The translations under genes were made by a program, and so were the position numbers. This document shows, piece after piece, positions 4,213-61,854 of a stretch of 64,000 nt of DNA; positions within the stretch are counted from its first letter, which is position 1, and each line of letters begins with the position of its first letter. Under the pieces are notes generated by a model, which saw only the letters and a list, made by a program, of their open reading frames with translations, ran no database searches and was not told the origin of the DNA. Source of the stretch: a virus. The DNA lies in the IMG/VR virus record IMGVR_UViG_3300033143_002031, positions 64,001 through 128,000 of that record; one strand, written 5' to 3'.

Positions 4213-4227
4213 GCGACCAATGGTCGC
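4213..4227. promoter_or_regulatory. palindrome GCGACCAATGGTCGC
   Basis: perfect 7-1-7 inverted repeat; other copies at 7748, 8066, 49122, 59242 and variants at 9221, 31645. Confidence 0.7.
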
Positions 4228-4737
4228 AAGGGACGGACGATGGGCCGGTGGATTTCACTCGACGCTGTTGAGAGGGAGGGCTGGTACGTGGCGAGGTACG
4301 ACACGCCCGAACAGCCCTACCGCGTGATCCGTGCACGAGTCGGGAAGGCGAGGTCGAGACGCTACAGTCACCGGGCTCCGATCGAGGTGTGGTCGGTGCC
4401 GATAGACGAGATGGGAAGCGAGGGGGTGGACGATGGAAAACTCTGATCCGGTGGCTGATGCCAACGTCAGACACCTGGAAGGGTGGGTGAGAGCAATGGA
4501 CGATTCTGCTGAGTTCAAGGCCGCACGACGGACGATGGCGAAGCATCTGCGAGAGGATGAGGGTCTGAGGCAGACCTACGAGGCCAACGTCGCGATGCTG
4601 CTTCACGATCGGCACGGCATCACCGACCACGACAAGCGCAACGCGGCGGCCAAGGACATCTTGCATCTGGTCTTCGAGTCATGAGCAACAAAGACCACAT
4701 CCTTGTCACATCGAGAAGGCGGAAGCCATCTTGATTG

Positions 4738-4765
4738 GAAAACTCCCGTGACCTCGTGGTATTGT
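4738..4765 (+). promoter_or_regulatory. candidate class II promoter
   Basis: GAAAAC-N16-TATTGT; same geometry at 7768 and 8632. Confidence 0.55.
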
Positions 4766-4795
4766 GCCCGGTGACGATCGTCACCTGGAGGTCCC

Positions 4796-5326
4796 ATGCA
4801 GGGGTTCGACGCTATCAAGATCAAGACGACTCGCCGTGAAGGCAACCGAGTCACTCTGACCATCGGCGGGGAGATCCTCGGGGGCAGCATCCGGGACCTC
4901 GGAGAGTTCGTCCGCCGCATGAAGCACCTGCACCGCAAGACGATGGGAGCAGCCCCACCGGCCGAGTTCTCTGAGCACGCTTTGTTCACCGAGACCGAGA
5001 GGCAGTCCCTTCGAGAGGTCGCGAAGTACAGGCCGCCAGACCCGACCAAGTTCACGCTGTTGATGTCCGCGCGGTCTGGAAAGATGGTAAAGGATCGCCA
5101 GTACAAGACCTTCAAGGCTGCGGAAACGGCACTGAGGAAAGCGATCAAGCGCGACCTCATGACCAGCAAGAATGACCTCTACCGCGTCCAACTGTGGTCC
5201 CCCGAGAAGCCAGGTCCGCAGACCAGGGTCGCCTCGTACAGCACGGACTATCGGCCCACATCGAGCAGCGTGTGGTACAAGCGCGACGAGCACGGCCATA
5301 AGACGATGTTCAAGGTCTACTCGTGA
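4796..5326 (+). CDS. hypothetical protein with internal LFTxxxRxxLRE motif
   Basis: GGAGG RBS; contains ALFTETERQSLRE. Confidence 0.7.
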   Translation: MQGFDAIKIKTTRREGNRVTLTIGGEILGGSIRDLGEFVRRMKHLHRKTMGAAPPAEFSEHALFTETERQSLREVAKYRPPDPTKFTLLMSARSGKMVKDRQYKTFKAAETALRKAIKRDLMTSKNDLYRVQLWSPEKPGPQTRVASYSTDYRPTSSSVWYKRDEHGHKTMFKVYS

Positions 5327-5760
5327 AAACTCTCTTCACGGAAGGCGAGCGCCTCGGGCTTCGAGAGGCGAGGCAGACCAAGGTCTTTGGCAACGCCATG
5401 GGGCTCGTGGTCCGTAAGAGCAGCTATCCCGAGTCATTCGTGCGGCGCGGGCTCGACCTGAGAGAGCCGTTCACGGGCTACACCGTCAGCACACCAAAGC
5501 CTCACGACACCTTTCTCGGTGTCGTCGTGAAGAAGGGGAAGCAGTGGCACTATGCGGCGTCCCCTCGATACAAGACGGTGGCTAGGCGGGGTGCGATGCC
5601 GGCCCTCAAAGGGCTCGTCACGCGCTACATCACAGGCGTCATCGACAACGAGCTACGCATGAGCGATGGCACTCTGGACGGCGCGATCGAAGGGCTCGGC
5701 TGTCACATCCTCCAGCGACTTGCTCATGAGTGGGGCATCGTGAAGGAGTACGAACGATGA
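5323..5760 (+). CDS. hypothetical protein with shared N-terminal tag
   Basis: starts MKTLFTEGERLGLRE; GTGA overlap. Confidence 0.7.
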   Translation: MKTLFTEGERLGLREARQTKVFGNAMGLVVRKSSYPESFVRRGLDLREPFTGYTVSTPKPHDTFLGVVVKKGKQWHYAASPRYKTVARRGAMPALKGLVTRYITGVIDNELRMSDGTLDGAIEGLGCHILQRLAHEWGIVKEYER

Positions 5761-6785
5761 GGAAAACTCTCTTCACGAGGTCCAAGAGGCGAACCCTGAA
5801 GGAAGAGGCGGCCGGCGTCCCCCGTGCGATCGACATCATGGGGCAGTCCAAGGGGCTCTCCTACAAGGGGGCAACCATCGGCCGCATCCCGAACGCCTAC
5901 GTGGTCTACGCCACCAAGACGGACGGGGAGAAGACCGAGGTCGCCCGGTACTACTTCCAGGACGACAAGGCACGGGCGAAGCGCCACGCGAAGTGGGATG
6001 CCGAGAGCACCCTGAAGTCCCTGAAGCGCACTCTCGGTCTGTCCGAGGCGACCTATGAGGTGGATGCGAAAGCTCGGGCCGAGGCCAACCGTATCTGGGA
6101 CTCGATCATCTCCTACGTGAGGGGCCTCGACGGGGACTATGATTCGGTGGTCTGGACCCGCGACGGCATGATGACGATCTACCCGGTGCACACCAAGGTC
6201 CCCTACGGCATGAAGGTGTACCTTGGGCCACGGGGGATGACATCGGGCTACGGGACCGGCTCGCAGGGTAACGTCCTGGTCATCGGCAGCGTACTGTTGC
6301 ACCCGAAGGACACGACGTACCTCGACACTCGCATCACGTCCGCCTCGCTCAGGCATACGTTCGTCCACGAGTACGTTCACCACCTCGATCACATGCGTCG
6401 AGGAAAACTCCCGGACCGGCACGCCATGAGGGCTGCTCACGCTGGTGACATCGCGGGCTACCTCCGCACGCCCGAGGAGTTCAACGCCTGGTATCAGGAA
6501 ACGGCGCAGGCGGCAGAGGACAGCATCGCCGGAAAGATCAAGGTCATCGAGAGGTTCCGCTCGGTGGGCAAGGACGCGCTCGTCGTGAAGGTGGTGGCAG
6601 CCCTCCATCGGGACGTTGCCTCGTTCCCCGCGTTCCTGAAGTTCGTGGAGAAGCACAACGAGGCCGGGGACACCCTCGCGGTGCTGAAGGGCTCGAAGTG
6701 GGAGCGGAAGTGGCTCAAGCGGATGCACACGCTCTACCGGGGCCTGAAGCCGAAGGTGATGTCCATGTCGGCGGGGTCCAAGTGA
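5757..6785 (+). CDS. putative zincin-like metallopeptidase with shared N-terminal tag
   Basis: starts MRKTLFTRSKRRTLKE; HEYVH (HExxH) with a downstream EFNA. Confidence 0.6.
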   Translation: MRKTLFTRSKRRTLKEEAAGVPRAIDIMGQSKGLSYKGATIGRIPNAYVVYATKTDGEKTEVARYYFQDDKARAKRHAKWDAESTLKSLKRTLGLSEATYEVDAKARAEANRIWDSIISYVRGLDGDYDSVVWTRDGMMTIYPVHTKVPYGMKVYLGPRGMTSGYGTGSQGNVLVIGSVLLHPKDTTYLDTRITSASLRHTFVHEYVHHLDHMRRGKLPDRHAMRAAHAGDIAGYLRTPEEFNAWYQETAQAAEDSIAGKIKVIERFRSVGKDALVVKVVAALHRDVASFPAFLKFVEKHNEAGDTLAVLKGSKWERKWLKRMHTLYRGLKPKVMSMSAGSK

Positions 6786-7141
6786 AAACTCTCTTCACCG
6801 AGGCCGAGCGAGCCGCCCTCTTGGAGGGCACCATCTGGCATCCGAGTCGCTCTTCGAGAAAACGGATGCGGCGCGTGCCCGGCCCGATCACGGACCCGAA
6901 CGAGGAGCCGCTGGGGTACAAGGTCGTGGGTTCGACCCTCTATGGCCGCGCGAGAGTCGTGTTGGACGGCCGGCGTATGATCCGGATTTACGAGTGGATC
7001 GACACCATGGGCTCAGAGGGCGGCCACGGGTGGAGGAAGGTCAAGAGGAAGGCCGAGCGGAACGAGGTGAAGAAGGCCCCGGGCAAGTGGGTCGACTTCA
7101 AGCCTGCGCTGGCTGCCTATCGGAAGGTCTACGAGCCATGA
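6782..7141 (+). CDS. hypothetical protein with shared N-terminal tag
   Basis: starts MKTLFTEAERAALLE. Confidence 0.7.
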   Translation: MKTLFTEAERAALLEGTIWHPSRSSRKRMRRVPGPITDPNEEPLGYKVVGSTLYGRARVVLDGRRMIRIYEWIDTMGSEGGHGWRKVKRKAERNEVKKAPGKWVDFKPALAAYRKVYEP

Positions 7142-7737
7142 GGAAAACTCTCTTCACGGCGGCGCAGCGGGTGGCTCTGAGGGAGTCGGCAGGTGACCCG
7201 TTCGTTGGCCTATCGCCTGAGCTACAGGAAGCGATGCGTCGGTTCGCGGAGCACCTCGCCTTTTGGATGGGCAACACCAGCAAGTACAGCGTCAAGGAAC
7301 TGCTCAAGATCTGGAAGGACAGCCCCGAGTTGCGAGCGTGGCTCAAGCGCCACGTCAACCTGGCGTCCTACACGCTCTACTACGGCACCACGACCAACGA
7401 TCGAAAGCTCCACGTAGGGGCCGCATGGAAGGGACCATCGGGCACTCAGCACTGGAGCACCGACCCTCATCGGTCGAGAGGGTTCGCAGGGCTCAATGGC
7501 AGGGTTGGGGGCTGGCCCAAGCCAGGTGGTGTACTCGTGCAGGCCCATGCGGCAGCGGCAGCGGTGATCGTTGACGTGGACCGTTTCAGCCACGTCTGCG
7601 GTCTGCACCGCGCCTCGTTCTCGAAGCTCATGACCAAGAACGACCCGAAGGAGATGTTCAGCGGCGAAGCCTACGAGGCCGAGGTGATAACGACCTCTGC
7701 CGTCAAGGGGAAGGTCACCGAGGTCGAGTGGTTCTGA
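7138..7737 (+). CDS. hypothetical protein with shared N-terminal tag
   Basis: starts MRKTLFTAAQRVALRE. Confidence 0.7.
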   Translation: MRKTLFTAAQRVALRESAGDPFVGLSPELQEAMRRFAEHLAFWMGNTSKYSVKELLKIWKDSPELRAWLKRHVNLASYTLYYGTTTNDRKLHVGAAWKGPSGTQHWSTDPHRSRGFAGLNGRVGGWPKPGGVLVQAHAAAAAVIVDVDRFSHVCGLHRASFSKLMTKNDPKEMFSGEAYEAEVITTSAVKGKVTEVEWF

Positions 7738-7746
7738 TCAACCCCG

Positions 7747-8094
7747 TGCGACCAATGGTCGCACCTGGAAAACTCCCCGGCCCCCGTGGTACAGTCCCCC
7801 TCATGAAGACGATCTTCACCGAGGCAGCGCGCCAGGCGCTTTATGAGGCGGCCCCTGTGATGGTGACAGTACCTTCGTTGCTGCTCTACCTGAAGCGGGA
7901 AAAGCAGCGTCTAAACGTCGGAATTACAAGTCTAAAACCGACCCAGCGGAAACAAGTGGAGCACACCATTTCGGTCCTCGACAGGATGATCGAGACGGTC
8001 GAGAAGTACAGCAAAAGTGGTAACCACGGAAGCCTGACCTTTCACCGTCCGTGAGCAGCCCTCCTGCGACCAATGGTCGCACCTGGAAAACTCC
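7747..8094 (+). repeat. 30-bp direct repeat pair (7747..7776, 8065..8094)
   Basis: TGCGACCAATGGTCGCACCTGGAAAACTCC occurs twice, identical. Confidence 0.9.
7803..8054 (+). CDS. small protein with shared N-terminal tag
   Basis: starts MKTIFTEAARQALYE; 7 nt after a TACAGT -10 box. Confidence 0.7.
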   Translation: MKTIFTEAARQALYEAAPVMVTVPSLLLYLKREKQRLNVGITSLKPTQRKQVEHTISVLDRMIETVEKYSKSGNHGSLTFHRP

Positions 8095-8105
8095 TTCGTT
8101 TGCTA

Positions 8106-8135
8106 TTGACTTCTGGCCTAACTATGTGGTACGAC
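8106..8135 (+). promoter_or_regulatory. class I promoter
   Basis: TTGACT-N18-TACGAC with CTATGTGG; ATG at 8143. Confidence 0.6.
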
Positions 8136-8142
8136 GGCCCAC

Positions 8143-31019: not shown

Positions 31020-31121
31020 ATGATGACCCCGGAGCCTGGGTGAGCCCCGAGGTCGAAGATGCTCGATTGTCACAGACCGAACAGCCGTCGCTGGGAGGTT
31101 CGCGAGAGAACCTCCTTCCAT

Positions 31122-31197
31122 CGGTGGGGGCAACAGGACTTGAACCTGCTCAATCCGGGGTAAAAGCCCGGGACCCGTCCAGTCGGGCGCTACCCCC
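31122..31197 (-). tRNA. tRNA-Lys(TTT)
   Basis: CCGGG CTTTTAC CCCGG; first tRNA of the array. Confidence 0.88.
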
Positions 31198-31266
31198 TGA
31201 GTTTGCGGTCTCAGGGTCACCGTTTCAGTCGTTGTCTCACCCTCCCCTCCTTCTTCTTCGAGCCCA

Positions 31267-31305
31267 GAAACGAGAAAAGCCGCCTCGGTTTCCCGGGGCG
31301 GCTCT
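31267..31305 (-). terminator. intrinsic terminator upstream of the tRNA array
   Basis: AGAGCCGCCCCGG-GAAA-CCGAGGCGGCTTTT then TCTCGTTTCT. Confidence 0.75.
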
Positions 31306-31380
31306 CGCGTGGTGCGTGTGGTGCGAGAGCCTTACCCGGGGCTACCCTCCTGGAGCGCGATGGCAGCATAAAACACGGTA

Positions 31381-31410
31381 TTACCGCCATCGGAGGGTAG
31401 ACACGTCCAT
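31381..31410 (-). promoter_or_regulatory. leader peptide uORF MDVSTLRWR*
   Basis: ATG GAC GTG TCT ACC CTC CGA TGG CGG TAA; its coding sequence pairs with the downstream leader RNA. Confidence 0.6.
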
Positions 31411-31752
31411 GAGGACGGTCGTTTGACCTCCGTGCGCTTCAACCGGGTATGTTCGATATGCCGTTGCATCGTGCTTCTCGGTAGCTCCCGGAAGGTGATG
31501 GACCTCCCGCTCGCATCTCTCACTGTGTCAAGCGCAAACCTCAGAGTCAAGCGGAAAAAGCGCACCGCTGTCACTTTTTCCTGGCTCTTTGGTACGTACT
31601 GCTCTTGTACTTCTGTGGGAGAGGTGATCCCGGCTCCAAGACCGGCGACCAATGGTTGCGAAATGGGCCGTGACGATTGCTCTTGACGCCGTTGGCAATC
31701 TCCTGCTATGTGGTATAGGTGAGTCGGGGATGAGTCCCCGAAGGAGGCGCTC

Positions 31753-32262
31753 GTGAGGAAGCACCTGAGCTACCTGTCTTATGTTGTCAGGCACCGCTGG
31801 TTCGTGCTCGTGGAGTGCGTGCGCCTCGGAATCATCTGGCGTGGACTCGTCCACGACCTGTCGAAGTTCCTGCCGAGCGAGTGGTTCCCCTACGTGAACT
31901 ATTTCAACGGCGAGTGGCAGGGCAAAGCGTCGGTCCCGGACGGGTACAAGTGCCCGAAGCCGGTCAAGGCAGCCTTCGATCTCGCGTGGCTCCTGCACCA
32001 GCACCGGAACAAACATCACTGGCAGTTCTGGCGTCTCAGGGAAGACGACGGCGGGACGAAGCTGATCCCCATGCCGCCGAAGTACGTGAAGGAGATGCTC
32101 GCCGACTGGCGCGGGGCCGGTCGCGCGCAGGGCTTCGACAAACTCGGCCCCTGGTACGCGAAGAACCACCTCAAGATCGAGCTACACGCGGAGACGCGCG
32201 ACCTCCTGCACTCCCTCATGGAGCCCGACGAGCTACCACCGAAGGTGCGGGAGAAGTCATGA
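31753..32262 (+). CDS. HD-like conserved phage protein (DUF5662-like)
   Basis: HRWFV, HDLSKF, HQHRNKHHWQFW, EMLADW. Confidence 0.65.
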   Translation: MRKHLSYLSYVVRHRWFVLVECVRLGIIWRGLVHDLSKFLPSEWFPYVNYFNGEWQGKASVPDGYKCPKPVKAAFDLAWLLHQHRNKHHWQFWRLREDDGGTKLIPMPPKYVKEMLADWRGAGRAQGFDKLGPWYAKNHLKIELHAETRDLLHSLMEPDELPPKVREKS

Positions 32263-35200
32263 GCACCCCTGGCACCGCAACGTGGCTCCGCGCGCAGGCG
32301 CAGGACCACGAGGACTTGGCCGAAGGGCTCATGCGTGCGGCGAACCGTATCGACCGACTACAGGCCGAACTGGCGAAGCAGAAGACGGGTGTGGACCAGA
32401 CGCACTGCCCGGCTCCGGTCCCGCGCCGTCCGGCCTCATATTTCCCCCGGCCCACAGACAGGCCGCAGCTACCGATCTTCCGCATTCGGCTGCCCGAGGG
32501 GGAGCTTGCGTCGGACCGTGAGGCCCACGAGCGTGTCTTCGACTGGATCAACGGCTCGGAGCACCTCGGCATGGGCCTGCTCGACCCCTGCCAGGTGTTC
32601 GTTCTCGGAGAGCCCGACGCAGAGGGCGGAACGTGGGACTACGACACGGTGATCGGCATCTCCACGCTCCACACGGACGCGCACGACAAGGGGTTCGTTC
32701 GCATCACAGGGGTCAGCCGGAAGGGGCCACTTGGGCTCTTGCAGAAGCGCCTCGGGAGCATCGACCTGACAGGGTGCACCATCCTGGACGTAGAGTCGGA
32801 CAACGAGACGATCATCGAACTCGTGGCGCTGGGCGAAGAGGTCGTGAAGGCCGAGGAAGACGAGGCAGGCGATGAGTGAGACCATGATGAAGCTGACGGT
32901 GCATTGCGTCTGTGGCACGAGCTACGACATCACCCCGGACACCTCGTCAGAGGACGCTCCGGGCCTGTGCCCCGGCTGCGGCGGCGTGCCTCCGCGCCCG
33001 AGCCTAGACGAGCGCGCCCAAGAGGCCACAGAACTCGAAGAGAGGGCTCTCGCCGACTTCACTGGTGCTATGGAATCGGTCCGCAGCAAACTCGCAAGTG
33101 CGCTCAGTGTCGATCCGGACACGAAATGGGAGAGGCTGGTGCCAGCCGCTCAAGAACTCCACGGCGAGTGGCAGGAAGTCACGACCGAGATCGACTCGCT
33201 GCGCTTCGCCCTGCACATGGTCCGAGAGCAGGTCGTCAAGGCCGACAAGTTGGTCTGGGACACCATCGGGGGTCGGCCGCCGGGGGAGGCGGAGTACGCC
33301 AGCGACCTCGTGGAGAGCGTCGGGGCGCTCATCGGTAAGATGGAAGAGGGGAAGGAGGTCCGAGAGCGACTTCACACCGAGATCGAGTCTCTGGAGGAGG
33401 ACGTAGCGGTGCTTCGCGCGGGGGACGAGACGTCTGCCGGAACGTGGAAGGCTCACTTCCTGGACCTCGCCATGGCGGTTGGGGTCCCGCGCGTGGCCTA
33501 CGGCGTCGTCACGGCCCCGAACGTGGACGCCGTGATGACCTACGTGGGGCAAGTCATGCCCGCCTACAAACTCCTCCAGCGCGTGGACGAACTGGAGAAG
33601 CGGTTCAACACCACGGCCGCGCCGCAAGGGACCGAGACCGGAGGGCTGAACCGGGTGCGGTGCCCCCACTGCGGGACAGGCTACCCCGCAGGAGTCATGT
33701 TCTGCCCGCGCTGCGGAAAGGACCCCTCCCCAGCGACCCCAGAGGGCTGCGAGACGTGCGAAGACGCCCCGGACGACTGCTACCCCGACCCGCCCGGCGC
33801 GGGCTCCTGTGAGCACCACAAGCCCAAGGGAGGTGCATCATGAGCCACACCTACAAGGACGAGACGGGGATCATCTTCCACTACAACTCGGACCTGTCCG
33901 GCGGCGTGGAGATTGTTGTCCCGCCCAACAACCCGCACGGTGATGGTACTTCGATCTCGATCGAGGCCGACGTCCTGAGCCGGTTCGTCTTTCACGCCAT
34001 GATGGACCCCGAAGAGACGCTGACGTGGCTCGAAAACATCCGGGACTGGATCAACCGGCACACGAATGCTGTGACGCAGTACCGCGAGGAGCGCACCCTG
34101 GGGCTGACCACCCCTAACACCGACCCGAGCCGGTACAAGTTCGCGCCCGGTGACAAGGTGTTCCTGACCTTCGCCGAGGCGAACGGGGAGACGGGCATGG
34201 TCACGAACGTTGGGCACCACTCCTCCGGGGGCGGGAGCTACGAGTACGCCGACGTGAACCTGGACAAGGACGGCACGCAGACAGGGCCGTTGCCGGTCAC
34301 GTGCGTGCGGATGAGGCGGCCGGAGGACCAGCTATGTACATCGTGATCGAGATGACCGCGAACAGGACAGACCCGCAGGGCTACGGAGGGTTCGTGAAGA
34401 TCCATTCCGACCTGACTTCCGGCAGCCTGCACGAGCAGGAATTCGCGGATGTCTACCATGAGGTCTGCAAACTCCTCGGGGTCGAGCAGGCGAAGATGAT
34501 CCACACCATGGGTGTGTACGGGGCGAGCAATGCGGGGATGGCCTATGAGGACGTGAAGTCGGACGGGGAGGTCCAGCTATTCACTGAATTTCAAGACCGA
34601 AGGCGAGTGTGGATCTTCGAGGTGCCGGCGGAGTAGGATCGTCAACATGGGGAGTATCACAGTTATCAGGTATGAGAAGCTCATCATGGCCGATGTCAGG
34701 TGGGCGGACGACGTGGCGGTCGAGTGGGCCGGAAACGATGGAGTTTACATCGTCCGGGCTGCTCTCGATTACACTGGCGCGGACGCAAGGATCATTCTGC
34801 GCCATGGCCCTAATGAGACGATCCTGGCTTCTGGGCTTGGGAGAGAGATGAGTTACTTCGGCAAGCATGCGGTTGCCGAGGGGGATGAGGTCGTGCTTCA
34901 GTGGCGCGCTCTTGTTCCATCGAGGCCGGCAGTGTCGGAGGTGGCAGAACTGCTCCTCGAAACCACTTCGGGTCGGTCCGATGACGAGACCAGACCGTAG
35001 GACACAGGGTGCGGGATGAGGACGGTGTGGGATGGTGATGGCGGTGCTGGGTGTTGTCGTGGCCCTGACGGTTCACGACGTGGTGGTGTGGCTCAAGAAC
35101 CAGGACGATGGAGGAGCTTGTGGGTTGGAGCCTTTGCGGGAAGAACGACCACGGGCAGGAGATAGGCTACAGCGTGGAGGCGGTCTGCGACGAGCCCGGC

Positions 35201-35383
35201 TGCGAGGTCGCGATAAATAGGGGCCTCGCATACCTCTGTGGACGGATGCACGAGGACTCCGAGACCTGCCACAAGTACTACTGCCAGGAGCACTTGTACC
35301 ACGCCGACGTGGGGCCAGGAGGCGGGCTCTGTGCGAGGTGCTTGGAGGAGCGGGAACGGCGAGAGGGGCTGGAGGACGAATGA
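32259..35383 (+). other. coupled hypothetical ORFs (32259..32879, 32872..33843, 33840..34346, 34334..34636, 34647..35000, 35108..35383)
   Basis: overlapping ORFs; Zn-ribbon motifs in 32872 and 35108. Confidence 0.6.
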
Positions 35384-36027
35384 AGGTACCTAGCAAAGCG
35401 CAGATCGAGGAGATGGGGGCTCATATGGAGGAGATGGCCCGAGAGACGCAGGGGCTCGGGCCGCCGGACCCTGAGCATCTGAGTGACTGCGGGGACGGCG
35501 AGGTCAGGCCGGTCCTGGTCTATCCGAGCCCTCGACTGCGGGACGAAACAGCCGAAGTCCCGGAGTTCGATGACCGGCTCCGCAAACTCGTGGCTGACCT
35601 GGCGACGACGATGTACACGTTCAACGGCATCGGGCTCGCTGCCACGCAGATCGGCGAGCCGGACCGGGTGTTCGTCGTGGACGTCTTGAACGGTGCCCCG
35701 CCCCAGAAGGGGCGACCGACGAACCAGCTTCTCGTCGCTGTCAACCCGATCGTGTGGCCCGTACCCGGCAAGACCAAGCGAGACGCGGAGCGATGCCTCT
35801 CGTTTCCAGATGCCGTGGAAGTGGTGGAGCGACCGGCGAGTGTCATCATGAAGGCGTTCGACCACCATGGGAAGCCCTACGCCCTCGGCTGTAGCGCCGA
35901 CCTCGGCCGCGCGATCCAGCACGAGTACGACCACCTCGAAGGCCGGCTGCTCATCGACTACATGGCGAAGAAGAAGGCCCGCGACCTGCGGCGTCGGATT
36001 CACTCCAACGGGCGGCGAAGGTGGTGA
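35380..36027 (+). CDS. def: peptide deformylase
   Basis: GIGLAATQIG, ERCLS, HEYDHLEG. Confidence 0.95.
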   Translation: MKVPSKAQIEEMGAHMEEMARETQGLGPPDPEHLSDCGDGEVRPVLVYPSPRLRDETAEVPEFDDRLRKLVADLATTMYTFNGIGLAATQIGEPDRVFVVDVLNGAPPQKGRPTNQLLVAVNPIVWPVPGKTKRDAERCLSFPDAVEVVERPASVIMKAFDHHGKPYALGCSADLGRAIQHEYDHLEGRLLIDYMAKKKARDLRRRIHSNGRRRW

Positions 36028-36466
36028 GCGACTACTCGGATCGAAAACTCCCTCGGGAGGGGGACGAGCCAGAGAGAGTCGTCCATGTCCTCGACAGTGG
36101 AGTCGCTCTCTGCGGGCTGGGTAAAGGGCAGTTCCCGGGCGAGTGGCCTCCGGGGCATGTCTGGACCTACGCGCACGACCTCGACAACGTGACCTGCGAG
36201 AGGTGTCTTGCCGAAGCGAAGAAGGTGCGTTGAGCCCGCGCAGTACCGATGCCTCACCTGCGCCTACGAGTGGCACAGGACCCCGGACAGCGGCCACCCG
36301 AGCGGGGTGACGCCCCCGACCTGCCCGAAGTGCGGCGCGCTCTACCTGGAGTGGATCGACTTTGAGGGCTGGCGCGAGCGCAACCCACTTTCAACTTGAC
36401 TTTCTCGCGTCAATAGCATACGTTAGGTGGGACGAGTGGGACGTGTCCCGCTAGGAGAGGAAGCAC

Positions 36467-59508: not shown

Positions 59509-61854
59509 GTGGATGTGACAGTCACAGGGTGGGCGTGGTTGCCCAAGGCGGACCTGACGCCAGACCAGATCGTGAACATGGAGCGCATGCTCACGGTTCA
59601 CCCGCAGAAGATCGGGGACTACCCGGGCGACGAGCCCCTGCCGATCCACCTGTATGCGAACGAGAGTGACCGCTTCGGCGTCCCCCGCGAGTTCTTTTTC
59701 AGCAATCGGCGTGCGACTCACAACATCGACCTCCAGGTCACAGAAGGATCTAAGGACTGGTGGCCGGCGGAGTTTGTCGGCCTCCTTCGGACGGAGCAGA
59801 AGACCGCTCTGAACGAGGTGGTGGCGATGTTCCGGGCCGGGCGGATGGGCGGGATCATCCAAGCCAAGCCGGGCTGGGGGAAGTGCCTGGGTATCGGAAC
59901 TCCCGTGCTCATGTTCGATGGAGCGATAAAGCCTGTCGAGGACATTCAAGATGGCGATCTTCTCATGGGGCCGGACAGCCGACCCCGCCGCGTTTTGTCT
60001 ACGACACGCGGCACCGGACCGCTATACGAGATCGTTCCGTTGCGTGGAGAGTCCTGGGTGTGCAACGACGCTCACATCTTGACTCTGGTTCACTCCCTGA
60101 CAGGAGAAGTACAGGATATTGAGGTGGGGGAGTACCTGAAGCTATCGAAGACGGAGCGGCATTACCTCAAGCAGTTTGCTCCGGAGCAAGGGGTCGACTT
60201 TCTCTCAGCCGAGCCACTTCTGCTGGACCCGTACTTTTTGGGGGTGTGGTTCGGGGACGGTACGAAGGGTGCGGACGAGGGGGTCTTGAGGAAGGTAGCG
60301 GTCACTAAGCGGGACGAAGAGATCAAGAAGCTGTGCGAGGATGTGGCGTCGAGGTACGGTCTCCATGTCCGCGTGGAAACTTCTGGAGGTACGCGGTGCC
60401 CTACCTACCATCTCACAACTGGCAGGACGGGAGGAGGCCGGAACGCGCTTCTCGATCTTTTGCGTCGTGTCGTGGGGGACGCATCTGAGGTCCCTCGTCA
60501 GTATCTCACCGCGTCCAGGTCGGATCGAAGGGCACTGCTCGCGGGTTTTTTGGACTCGGACGGCCACCTCAATAACGGTTATTTCGACATCGTGCAGAAG
60601 CGGCGCTCTTATGCGGAGGCCGTCATGTTCCTCGCCCGATCTCTTGGGTTTCGGGCGAGGGTGTCGGAGAAAATTGTACACGGGGAGGTCTACTGGCGCA
60701 TGGGTCTGTCCGGCGATTTCTCTACACTTCCCCTGCGTGTGTCCCGAAAGAAGGCCCCTCCCCGGCGACAGAAAAAGGTGCCTACTCGGACAGGGTTCGA
60801 TGTTCGTTTTGCGGGGACCGGGGCGTATGCGGGGTTTACGTTGGACGGGGACGGGCGGTTCCTCCTCGGAGATTTCACCGTGACTCACAACACGGTCGTG
60901 GCGCTGGCTATCGCTGCCGAGCTAGGTGTGCCTACCCTCGTCGTAGTCCACAAGGAATTTCTGATGGACCAGTGGACGGAGCGGATCGAGAAGTTCCTTC
61001 CGGCGGCGAAGATAGGTCGCGTCCAGCAAGACACCTGCGACTTCCGGGGCAAGACTGTGGTCATGGGCATGGTTCACTCCCTTGGAGGAGAGCAGCCCTA
61101 CCCTGAAGACCTGTGGGAGTGGCCGGGTTTGGTCATCGTGGACGAGGTGCACCGTATCGGAGCCCGCACGTGGGCTCCTGTTCCTCCGAGGTTCCAAGCC
61201 AAGTACCGCCTCGGATTCACGGCGACGCCCCGGCGCAAGGATGGCGCCGACGACGTGTTCTGGCAGCACATCGGTCCGATTATCTTCGCGGGGAAAGAGG
61301 AGCGATTGAAGCCCGTCGTCAAGCGAGTGTGGACCAAGTTCAAACTCGTGAAGACGGACCGCTTCAATCCGAATCTGGCCCCGAAGGCGCTCATCACTCG
61401 GTTCCTGGTCAAGAGCCGCTACCGCAACGATCTGATCGCGGAGCAACTCGTCTCAGCCTTGGAGGCGGGGAGGAAGATCCTTGTGCTGAGTGAGCGCTTG
61501 CAGCACCTACAGGACATGGAGTCGCAGCTTCGGAATATGTGGCCAGCGGTGGCCGGAGACGTTTCGATCGGTCAGTACGTCGGAGGTCGAACCAAGGTCC
61601 AACTCGAACGGTCGGCGCAGGCTAAGGTCATCTTCGCCACGTCTCAGTACGCGGCCGAGGGTCTGGACATCCCGGCGCTGGACACGCTGTTCCTGACCAC
61701 GCCAATGAGCGACGTGGAGCAGGCGGTGGGTCGTATTCAGAGGCCGCACCCGGACAAGAAAGATCCTATCGTGGTGGACTTCCGCGATGACTCGATTCCT
61801 ATGTTCGAGGCGATGGGTAGGAAACGAGAGAAGTTCTACACGAGGATAGCTTGA
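59509..61854 (+). CDS. SF2 helicase (Res III/UvsW-like) with intein
   Basis: PGWGK|T, DEVH, FTATP, FATSQ, QAVGRIQR. Confidence 0.92.
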   Translation: MDVTVTGWAWLPKADLTPDQIVNMERMLTVHPQKIGDYPGDEPLPIHLYANESDRFGVPREFFFSNRRATHNIDLQVTEGSKDWWPAEFVGLLRTEQKTALNEVVAMFRAGRMGGIIQAKPGWGKCLGIGTPVLMFDGAIKPVEDIQDGDLLMGPDSRPRRVLSTTRGTGPLYEIVPLRGESWVCNDAHILTLVHSLTGEVQDIEVGEYLKLSKTERHYLKQFAPEQGVDFLSAEPLLLDPYFLGVWFGDGTKGADEGVLRKVAVTKRDEEIKKLCEDVASRYGLHVRVETSGGTRCPTYHLTTGRTGGGRNALLDLLRRVVGDASEVPRQYLTASRSDRRALLAGFLDSDGHLNNGYFDIVQKRRSYAEAVMFLARSLGFRARVSEKIVHGEVYWRMGLSGDFSTLPLRVSRKKAPPRRQKKVPTRTGFDVRFAGTGAYAGFTLDGDGRFLLGDFTVTHNTVVALAIAAELGVPTLVVVHKEFLMDQWTERIEKFLPAAKIGRVQQDTCDFRGKTVVMGMVHSLGGEQPYPEDLWEWPGLVIVDEVHRIGARTWAPVPPRFQAKYRLGFTATPRRKDGADDVFWQHIGPIIFAGKEERLKPVVKRVWTKFKLVKTDRFNPNLAPKALITRFLVKSRYRNDLIAEQLVSALEAGRKILVLSERLQHLQDMESQLRNMWPAVAGDVSIGQYVGGRTKVQLERSAQAKVIFATSQYAAEGLDIPALDTLFLTTPMSDVEQAVGRIQRPHPDKKDPIVVDFRDDSIPMFEAMGRKREKFYTRIA
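59884..60891 (+). mobile_element. intein with LAGLIDADG homing endonuclease (336 aa)
   Basis: starts CLGIGTPV, ends FTVTHN before T; blocks YFLGVWFGDG and LLAGFLDSDG; inserted in Walker A. Confidence 0.95.

Follow-up and report, generated by a model that had tools for sequence, protein, structure and literature searches.

The stretch analysed here, referred to as the window, comprises the 64,000 nucleotides between bases 64,001 and 128,000 of one IMG/VR virus record (184,744 bp, 62.5% GC). Six genes on its + strand, designated A to F and spanning window positions 4796-8054, carry a common short peptide ending in L-x-E, and we consider it likely that this peptide is a lineage-specific capsid-targeting and cleavage leader borne by an operon of cassettes for internal or ejected cargo proteins. 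In the mechanism that we propose, the N-terminal part of the leader (KT-L-F-T...R) would anchor each protein to the scaffold core of the assembling prohead, and a T4-type S77 prohead protease would remove the leader at the terminal L-x-E after the shell has closed. The small basic bodies would then be left free among the packaged DNA and would probably exit the capsid with it at infection, where they may act as effectors. Cargo cassettes of this sort, single or fused, would make up the translationally coupled operon of genes A-E, and the protease would probably also cut the DVDDL-x-E linkers of a 1,023-aa polyprotein encoded by the same genome.

The leader peptide

The N-termini of B-F follow the pattern (M)(R)KT[LI]FT-x3-R-x2-L-x-E over 15-16 residues, and F, T, R and L are invariant in the alignment of the leaders. 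Over the tagged proteins the leaders measure 15-18 aa, with the endings LRE, LKE, LLE, LRE, LYE, and LAE or LSE. A preliminary description of the sequence had listed six shared peptides ending in LxE; all six are present on the + strand, five of them at the starts of open reading frames. These are gene B (5323-5760, 145 aa; leader MKTLFTEGERLGLRE at 5323-5367), gene C (5757-6785, 342 aa; leader MRKTLFTRSKRRTLKE at 5757-5804), gene D (6782-7141, 119 aa; leader MKTLFTEAERAALLE at 6782-6826), gene E (7138-7737, 199 aa; leader MRKTLFTAAQRVALRE at 7138-7185) and gene F (7803-8054, 83 aa; leader MKTIFTEAARQALYE at 7803-7847). The sixth copy is indeed internal to gene A (4796-5326, 176 aa), which encodes a 61-aa N-terminal module, the leader and a basic body. 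The position first given for it, 4796, is the start of the gene; the motif itself lies at 4979-5017 (ALFTETERQSLRE, residues 62-74, ending in L-R-E) and scores 24.8 bits in the leader profile.

The peptide is exclusive to a small set of proteins. Translated in six frames, the complete genome has the strict motif [LI]FT-x3-R-x2-L-x-E in frame at the six array sites only, the sole other match to the regular expression being off-pattern and on the minus strand. A profile built from the six leaders scores its own members at 20.7-26.5 bits, with noise from about 7 bits; the next two matches are the exact N-termini of g034 (12.6 bits; leader MIFTEAQRVNLRALAE) and g040 (9.4 bits; leader MAAVFTEAQRAGLHALSE). 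Both of these genes lie outside the window and adjoin the gene for the 1,023-aa polyprotein, which is itself cargo-like and has eight of its 11 [LI]xE sites within a repeated DVDDL-x-E linker. The invariant R, L and E of the leader are encoded by differing synonymous codons. As the codons vary, as some copies lack the DNA word described below and as orthologues keep the peptide, the leader peptide is itself under selection. A secretion signal peptide was also considered and was rejected, the leader being charged and not hydrophobic.

Head module and prohead protease

The genome encodes a T4-type head module, with matches to Portal_T4 (244 bits), to the Gp23 major capsid protein (246 bits) and to Peptidase_S77. 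The prohead protease is recognized both by PF03420 Peptidase_S77 (69.7 and 67 bits) and by phrog_207 (E 7e-47), and its His and Ser motifs, LGELDHP and GISSRGFGS, align with those of T4 gp21; no S78 protease was found in the genome. The S77 protease (567 aa, G000 154019-155722, outside the window) is fused to an acidic, coiled-coil, scaffold-like tail of about 350 aa that is rich in [LI]xE. The fusion has the look of T4 gp21 and gp22 combined in a single gene, and the relative G001, described below, has a like arrangement.

T4 gp21 cuts after L/I-X-E (PMC9026906). The preliminary description had proposed to look for the LxE motif in the capsid and scaffold proteins, and sites of this type occur there. 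The capsid-protein sequence QSLTE↓E aligns with the T4 gp23 maturation site FLTE↓AEIGG (here and below an arrow marks the boundary after the Glu), so that L-T-E is kept at the gp23-type site, and the propeptide block upstream of it is conserved too. The putative core proteins g223-g225 are enriched in [LI]xE, with 2.4-3.6 sites per 100 aa against 1.06 for the proteome. A further small gene of this region, g228 (G000 157628-158038, likewise outside the window), lies two genes 3' of the capsid gene and begins with MRAFEGLREALTRLRE. L-R-E occurs twice within the first 16 residues of its product, which may carry another type of leader.

The bodies behind the leader

All eight leaderless bodies (A-F, g034 and g040) are basic, with isoelectric points (pI) of 9.35-10.66, those of B and D being 9.9 and 10.5. 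The proteome of 259 predicted proteins has a median pI of 5.7 and 20% of it exceeds 9.3, which puts the chance of eight bodies all lying above pI 9.3 at 0.2^8, or about 3e-6. The bodies are otherwise dissimilar, as had been noted at the outset. BLASTP matches between tagged proteins stop at the leader with one exception, a weak match of the second module of gene A to g034 (35% over 68 aa, E ~0.03-0.07), and hhalign between the leaderless bodies gives a probability of at most 12.6%. Plain paralogy of the bodies, which the preliminary description had named as the contrary outcome, is rejected on the hhalign values.

Searches of Pfam and PHROGs assigned no significant family to the six proteins or to their neighbours, and blastn of the region against GenBank phages returned no match. 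A structure-atlas search with E found only unnamed viral clusters; the AlphaFold2 (AF2) model of full-length E, made from a two-sequence alignment, was unusable, with a predicted local distance difference test score (pLDDT) of 34. Like the second module of gene C, to which we return below, g040 is a tagged HExxH protein; its weak matches to Peptidase_Mx and ATLF fall below the curated cut-offs.

Orthologues, fusions and a related array

A search with the leader profile against a collection of 5.8 billion proteins gave orthologues that carry leaders of their own. The orthologue of E, P0013, has the leader MKTLFTETAREWLRE and that of F, P0014, has MRTIFTESERAELGE; two orthologues of g034 have MIFTEVQRADLRALAE and MIFTEESRAYLRAITE, and one of g040 has MSDVFTEAQRAKLQALSE. 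These orthologues from other phages retain the leader with its [LI]xE, and the variable positions of the leader diverge more than the body does. A search of IMG/VR with gene E for the locus in relatives found none.

The cassettes are modular. The second module of gene A exists elsewhere as a stand-alone gene of 113 aa, P0010, with MKTLFTEEKRQALLE at its N-terminus. The GC content at third codon positions is, in frame, 0.82 and 0.83 for the two halves of gene A; both halves are thus coding, and A is a real fusion with a leader inside. The first ~95 residues of gene C are likewise found alone in P0005 and P0042 and joined to another body in P0028. At the joints of these fusions an L-x-E is kept, as GLSE↓ATY in gene C and as GLTE↓SSV in P0028, so that the protease could separate the modules. 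Comparison of the cargo among relatives, which the preliminary description had proposed, shows that both its content and its state of fusion differ.

One relative, G001 (IMG/VR, 49.8 kb), combines a C body of 43% identity with an S77 protease and a Gp23 capsid protein. Its array (L002 5985-11049, equivalent to G001 31020-36084) has at least six genes with mostly basic products and lies between the capsid and tail-sheath genes, within the structural cluster. The leaders in this array are of a different type, MRLSxQLxE, and read MRLSEQL..AIAE, MRLSEEL..ALTE, MSLARQLYE, MSLAKQLHE, MTLSGKLEE and MRLSAQLSE.

The HExxH body of gene C and its family

Gene C is built from a first module that extends to about residue 94, a junction L-S-E at 6039-6047 and a second module that is an HExxH domain, with HEYVH at 6366-6380, all on the + strand. 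The second module (residues ~95-335, window 6039-6782) matches 172 representative clusters at E <= 1e-3. Most members of this family stand alone and are 230-270 aa long; some of the matches lie inside proteins of 600-2,200 aa, and in these giant proteins the C-type domain is found beside ART-PolyVal, SprT-like, C39 peptidase and PARP-like domains. The H, E and H of the HExxH motif are invariant in 76 sequences, together with E147, N149 and R228, which gives the combination of HExxH and a downstream third ligand that characterizes zincins.

The AF2 model of the C body has a pLDDT of 95.7 and a predicted TM-score of 0.92. Foldseek with this model returned nothing at E <= 1e-3 (BlaR1, SPRTN, DPP III and MATCAP are among the weak rows), a VIA wide search gave helical-bundle matches only, with Z < 7, and the family has no model in Pfam or PHROGs. 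Among cultured phages, tblastn with the C body and with P0055 found only a hypothetical protein of Salicola phage SCTP-2, besides an uncultured 484-kb phage.

The family allows the leader to be separated from what it is attached to. The bodies always start ATY..D..R.EA, and a hydrophobic-x-E occurs 3-14 residues before the anchor Arg in 85 of the 94 stand-alone members, 69 of which have it at exactly 9-10; a control window of equal width contains such a site in eight of the 94. In 84% of cases P3 of the site is Leu or Ile; at P1' Ala (39) and Ser (13) predominate, and the leaders have a median length of 9 aa. Nine of 13 fused or giant members also have a hydrophobic-x-E just before the domain. 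The leaders themselves vary with lineage. The types found are KTLFT, MRLSxQLxE, MK..ELFE and MKSFREFIFE↓G, the last of which is close to MKTYQEFIAE↓A of T4 (read, like MKTFKEF...ITE↓A, from AF158101). In a maximum-likelihood tree of the bodies the KTLFT and MRLSxQLxE leaders are interleaved inside a clade with 99/97 support, and the leader type must have changed at least twice, given the well-supported branches. The same leader is found on different bodies and different leaders are found on the same body, and the one invariant is a predicted gp21-type site at the boundary.

This invariance might be taken to mean that the leader is a cleavable pro-peptide only, of the zymogen type or for recognition by the protease, and that the bodies enter the prohead, if they do so at all, by charge or DNA binding. 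The hydrophobic-x-E at a fixed position is the one feature common to all of the leader dialects of the C family, and two of the tagged proteins are putative HExxH peptidases that could need latency. A bare cut site, however, has no need of KT-L-F-T...R, which within this lineage is conserved over unrelated bodies and over phages. In T4 the two functions share one short leader: the first 10 residues of IPIII, its capsid-targeting sequence (CTS), suffice for packaging, targeting being governed by residues 4 and 7 and processing by residues 8 and 10 (PMC9026906). We regard a leader that serves cleavage without targeting as unlikely.

Weighing the assignment

Several points weigh against a leader for the capsid. 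The array sits among small, early-looking genes outside the structural cluster, and the whole genome is devoid of the T4-type late promoter TATAAATA (0 copies). Leaders of T4 and of the C-body family typically have 9-10 aa, fewer than this one, whose homology to the T4 CTS is not demonstrable, peptides of this size being too short for a homology test. About 18% of the other proteins in the genome have [LI]xE within residues 6-20, so that the cut site alone is weak evidence, and we infer cutting after L-x-E by this protease from one aligned site and from the enrichment of such sites.

The setting among small early-type genes, with sigma70-like promoters nearby, would suit a different function, in which the leader is an interaction or regulatory peptide (a handle, for instance, for a chaperone, a degradation system or some phage or host factor) on early host-takeover proteins and the L-x-E is coincidental. 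We give this explanation slightly less credence than the pro-peptide. It leaves unexplained the retention of L-x-E at fusion junctions, the strongly basic nature of all of the bodies and the place of the related array between capsid and sheath genes, as well as the more than 80 clusters that have other leaders and keep the site at a constant position on a homologous body.

A capsid-targeting and cleavage leader thus remains the reading that we prefer. The preliminary description had proposed an array of interchangeable cargo proteins that are packaged into the head, processed after LxE and injected with the DNA. Those parts of the proposal that lend themselves to analysis in silico have held up: an S77 protease is encoded, the capsid protein has its L-T-E, the bodies are unrelated and basic, the cargo varies and the HExxH body is found under changed leaders. 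If the leader works as that of T4 does, the virion cargo marked by it numbers at least eight proteins in this phage and many more among its relatives. The assignment, if true, would offer a sequence-only handle on the first-strike effectors of uncultured phages, among which the HExxH family, confidently folded, widespread and outside Pfam and PHROGs, would supply candidate injected enzymes. A second targeting leader, unrelated in sequence, would also be useful for comparing how cargo docks to the scaffold core.

A broader view can be put forward tentatively. T4-like phages may use lineage-specific leader dialects that co-evolve with the scaffold core, while cargo cassettes move, are re-tagged and are fused or strung into polyproteins, with a protease site kept at each joint; the HExxH body would in that case be a new and widespread virion-delivered metallopeptidase directed against a host target, possibly a defence protein. 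Were this so, sequence alone would suffice to read the set of proteins that any uncultured T4-like phage injects.

Gene organization and DNA-level signals

The starts of B, C, D and E each overlap the preceding stop codon (GTGA or ATGA), with GTG starts in B (GTGA, over the stop of A) and D (over the stop of C) and ATG starts in C and E (the latter over the stop of D), an arrangement that suggests translational coupling of A-E in a single operon. The C-termini of A (FKVYS, 5300-5326), B (VKEYER, 5740-5760) and D (RKVYEP, 7120-7141) resemble each other, because the Shine-Dalgarno sequence of the next gene (GAAGG) is embedded in the last codons; the conserved junction unit therefore extends over both genes. 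A junction unit of 62 nt, which includes the upstream Shine-Dalgarno sequence, is common to C and E.

Gene F, a cassette apart from this operon, has a promoter-like unit of its own. Its ATG start is followed by a leader written in common codons (AAG ACG ATC). A 34-nt unit consisting of GGAAAACTCC, 9 nt and GTGGTAYNGT (repeat family D2) stands 5' of both A and F, and a looser copy stands 5' of the second gene after F. In front of gene A it occupies 4736-4769 on the + strand, where motif maps show the GGAAAACTCC box, 9 nt and GTGGTATTGT, which is extended -10-like, without a TTGAC -35; in front of gene F it occupies 7766-7799 on the same strand, with GGAAAACTCC, 9 nt and GTGGTACAGT. Both are putative promoters. 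Units of this class, with a -10-like GTGGTA and no -35, are also found 5' of the structural genes g221, g240 and g254 and of g207; a promoter-like class that links A and F to structural genes is suggestive only.

Gene F is further bracketed by two + strand copies, 94% identical, of a 35-nt repeat (family D5) in which a palindrome is followed by the box. The left copy lies at 7742-7776 (palindrome GCGACCAATGGTCGC and GGAAAACTCC) and the right copy at 8060-8094, after which comes the sigma70-like promoter of the next gene. The genome has nine copies of the palindrome, GCGACCA(A/T)TGGTCGC, which is perfect over 15 nt, and every copy lies at a gene end or just beyond it. Five of the sites are in the window, at 4213, 7748, 8066, 49122 and 59242, and four are outside; one follows the major capsid gene. 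The palindrome may be a terminator or a regulatory hairpin and recalls the promoter-early stem-loop (PeSL) elements considered below. The sigma70-like promoter class, (C/A)GTTTGC(T/C)(C/A)TTGAC - 17 nt - T(A/G)GG(C/T)T or GTGGTA, is strongly conserved and stands 5' of many small early-looking genes, including the gene after F (8094-8140).

Identical 5' DNA had been reported for four of the genes, and B, C, D and E do share the 15-mer GAAAACTCTCTTCAC, which uses codons that are rare in the genome, AAA (11% of Lys) and ACT (10% of Thr). Contained in it is GAAAACTC, which exceeds expectation more than any other 8-mer of the genome: 37 copies lie on the + strand and 16 on the - strand where about one per strand is expected, some 43-fold over a second-order Markov model. 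Copies of the word fall in each of the three reading frames. Intergenic DNA is enriched in them, holding 27% of those on the + strand, and nine copies lie 9-73 nt upstream of a start codon. The word, or the variant GCAAACTC, is found in the window at, for example, 4437, 4739, 6404, 7769, 8087, 9133, 9705, 10338 and 10451; it was not found in 20 kb of the relative G001. The exact 15-mer has 39 single matches in IMG/VR, which were rejected as chance matches: they are in unrelated contigs of other GC content and none encodes the peptide. GAAAACTC is thus a genome-wide DNA or RNA signal that overlaps four leaders; possible roles are those of a promoter or activator box, or of some other DNA signal with a strand bias. 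Since it is over-represented genome-wide, the shared 5' DNA is not specific to the tag.

A DNA-level layer on B-E is therefore likely, although it is insufficient to explain the peptide. That the repeat is primarily a DNA or RNA element (for example a recombination site, a junction for initiation or coupling, or one more instance of the genome-wide GAAAACTC) and the peptide its by-product is very improbable: the rare codons of the 15-mer, the abundance of the word and the 62 nt shared by the C and E junctions would suit it, but the DNA word is missing from F, A, g034 and g040, which nevertheless encode the peptide, synonymous codons vary at the conserved R, L and E, other phages keep the peptide and the identity covers 15 nt of a conserved coding unit of 45 nt. 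The suggestion that this shared 5' DNA allows cassettes to be shuffled finds little support for a related reason, as the 15-mer holds the genome-wide GAAAACTC and sits in a translational-coupling junction. The 35-nt repeat that brackets F and the 62-nt junction unit of C and E would be clearer signatures of shuffling.

Elsewhere in the window, at 59509-61854, a 781-aa ResIII/Helicase_C helicase is split by an intein with Hint and LAGLIDADG homing-endonuclease domains.

Comparison with known systems

The three internal proteins of T4 and Alt are the textbook examples of proteins shipped in a capsid, and IPI* is a dedicated anti-restriction factor. According to Mullaney and Black (1996), and as reviewed in PMC9026906 and PMC3012670, the T4 CTS is present on IPI, IPII, IPIII and Alt and is removed by gp21; T4 propeptides have 10-20 residues (PMC5694885). 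The leader described here resembles the T4 CTS in being a short N-terminal peptide with an MKT start, hydrophobic or aromatic residues at positions 4-5 and an L/I-x-E end followed mostly by a small residue. It resembles it as well in being attached to unrelated small basic proteins (the T4 IPII and IPIII bodies have a pI of 9.6), in accompanying gp20-, gp21- and gp23-type head genes and in that its genes lie outside the head cluster, as the T4 ip genes also do. It differs in having 15-16 aa instead of 10 (19 in IPI) and its own core, F-T...R. The six genes are in tandem and coupled whereas those of T4 are scattered, and a copy of the leader is internal to a fusion.

The internal proteins of T-even phages are diverse, with only the CTS conserved, and their loci are polymorphic (Repoila et al. 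1994, as cited in PMC3012670). The array shares with these loci the variable, unrelated proteins under a common targeting leader and the differences in cargo between related phages. Unlike them, it belongs to a distant uncultured T4-like lineage of 62.5% GC, its cassettes are also fused or set in a polyprotein, and leader dialects on the same cargo family differ from lineage to lineage.

In phiKZ, 201phi2-1 and SPN3US, inner-body or ejection proteins are processed at S/A-x-E by a protease related to gp21 (PMC9026906, PMC5694885, PMC7411985). The likeness to these phiKZ-like giant phages lies in the cut after Glu by a protease of the gp21 family, predicted here, in N-terminal propeptides that are thought to target cargo to the prohead and in the many species of cargo. 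Most of the propeptides there, however, exceed 100 residues and have a small P3 (S/A); the leaders here are short, with Leu at P3 like those of T4.

PeSL elements are mobile regulatory cassettes that mediate modular shuffling in T4-type genomes (PMC2839356, PMC4122927). Gene F, bracketed by its 35-nt palindrome and promoter-like box, recalls them, as does the recurrence of the palindrome at nine gene ends; the sequence differs from that of PeSL, and shuffling mediated by the repeat was not observed at gene F.

The HExxH body brings to mind a further group. Polyvalent proteins of phages and conjugative elements, reportedly described by Iyer and colleagues in 2017, are said to be multidomain proteins with ART-PolyVal, metallopeptidase and other effector domains. 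The recurrence of the C-type HExxH body in proteins of 600-2,200 aa, with the partner domains listed above, is in keeping with this. Gene C, in contrast, has the domain as a small cassette tagged with a leader, and no Pfam model for polyvalent proteins matches it.

Taken with these comparisons, the sequences point to a system of the same kind as the T4 CTS and the T-even internal-protein loci, in which the differences lie in a longer and distinct leader, its internal use in fusions and the swapping of leaders across a large cargo family.

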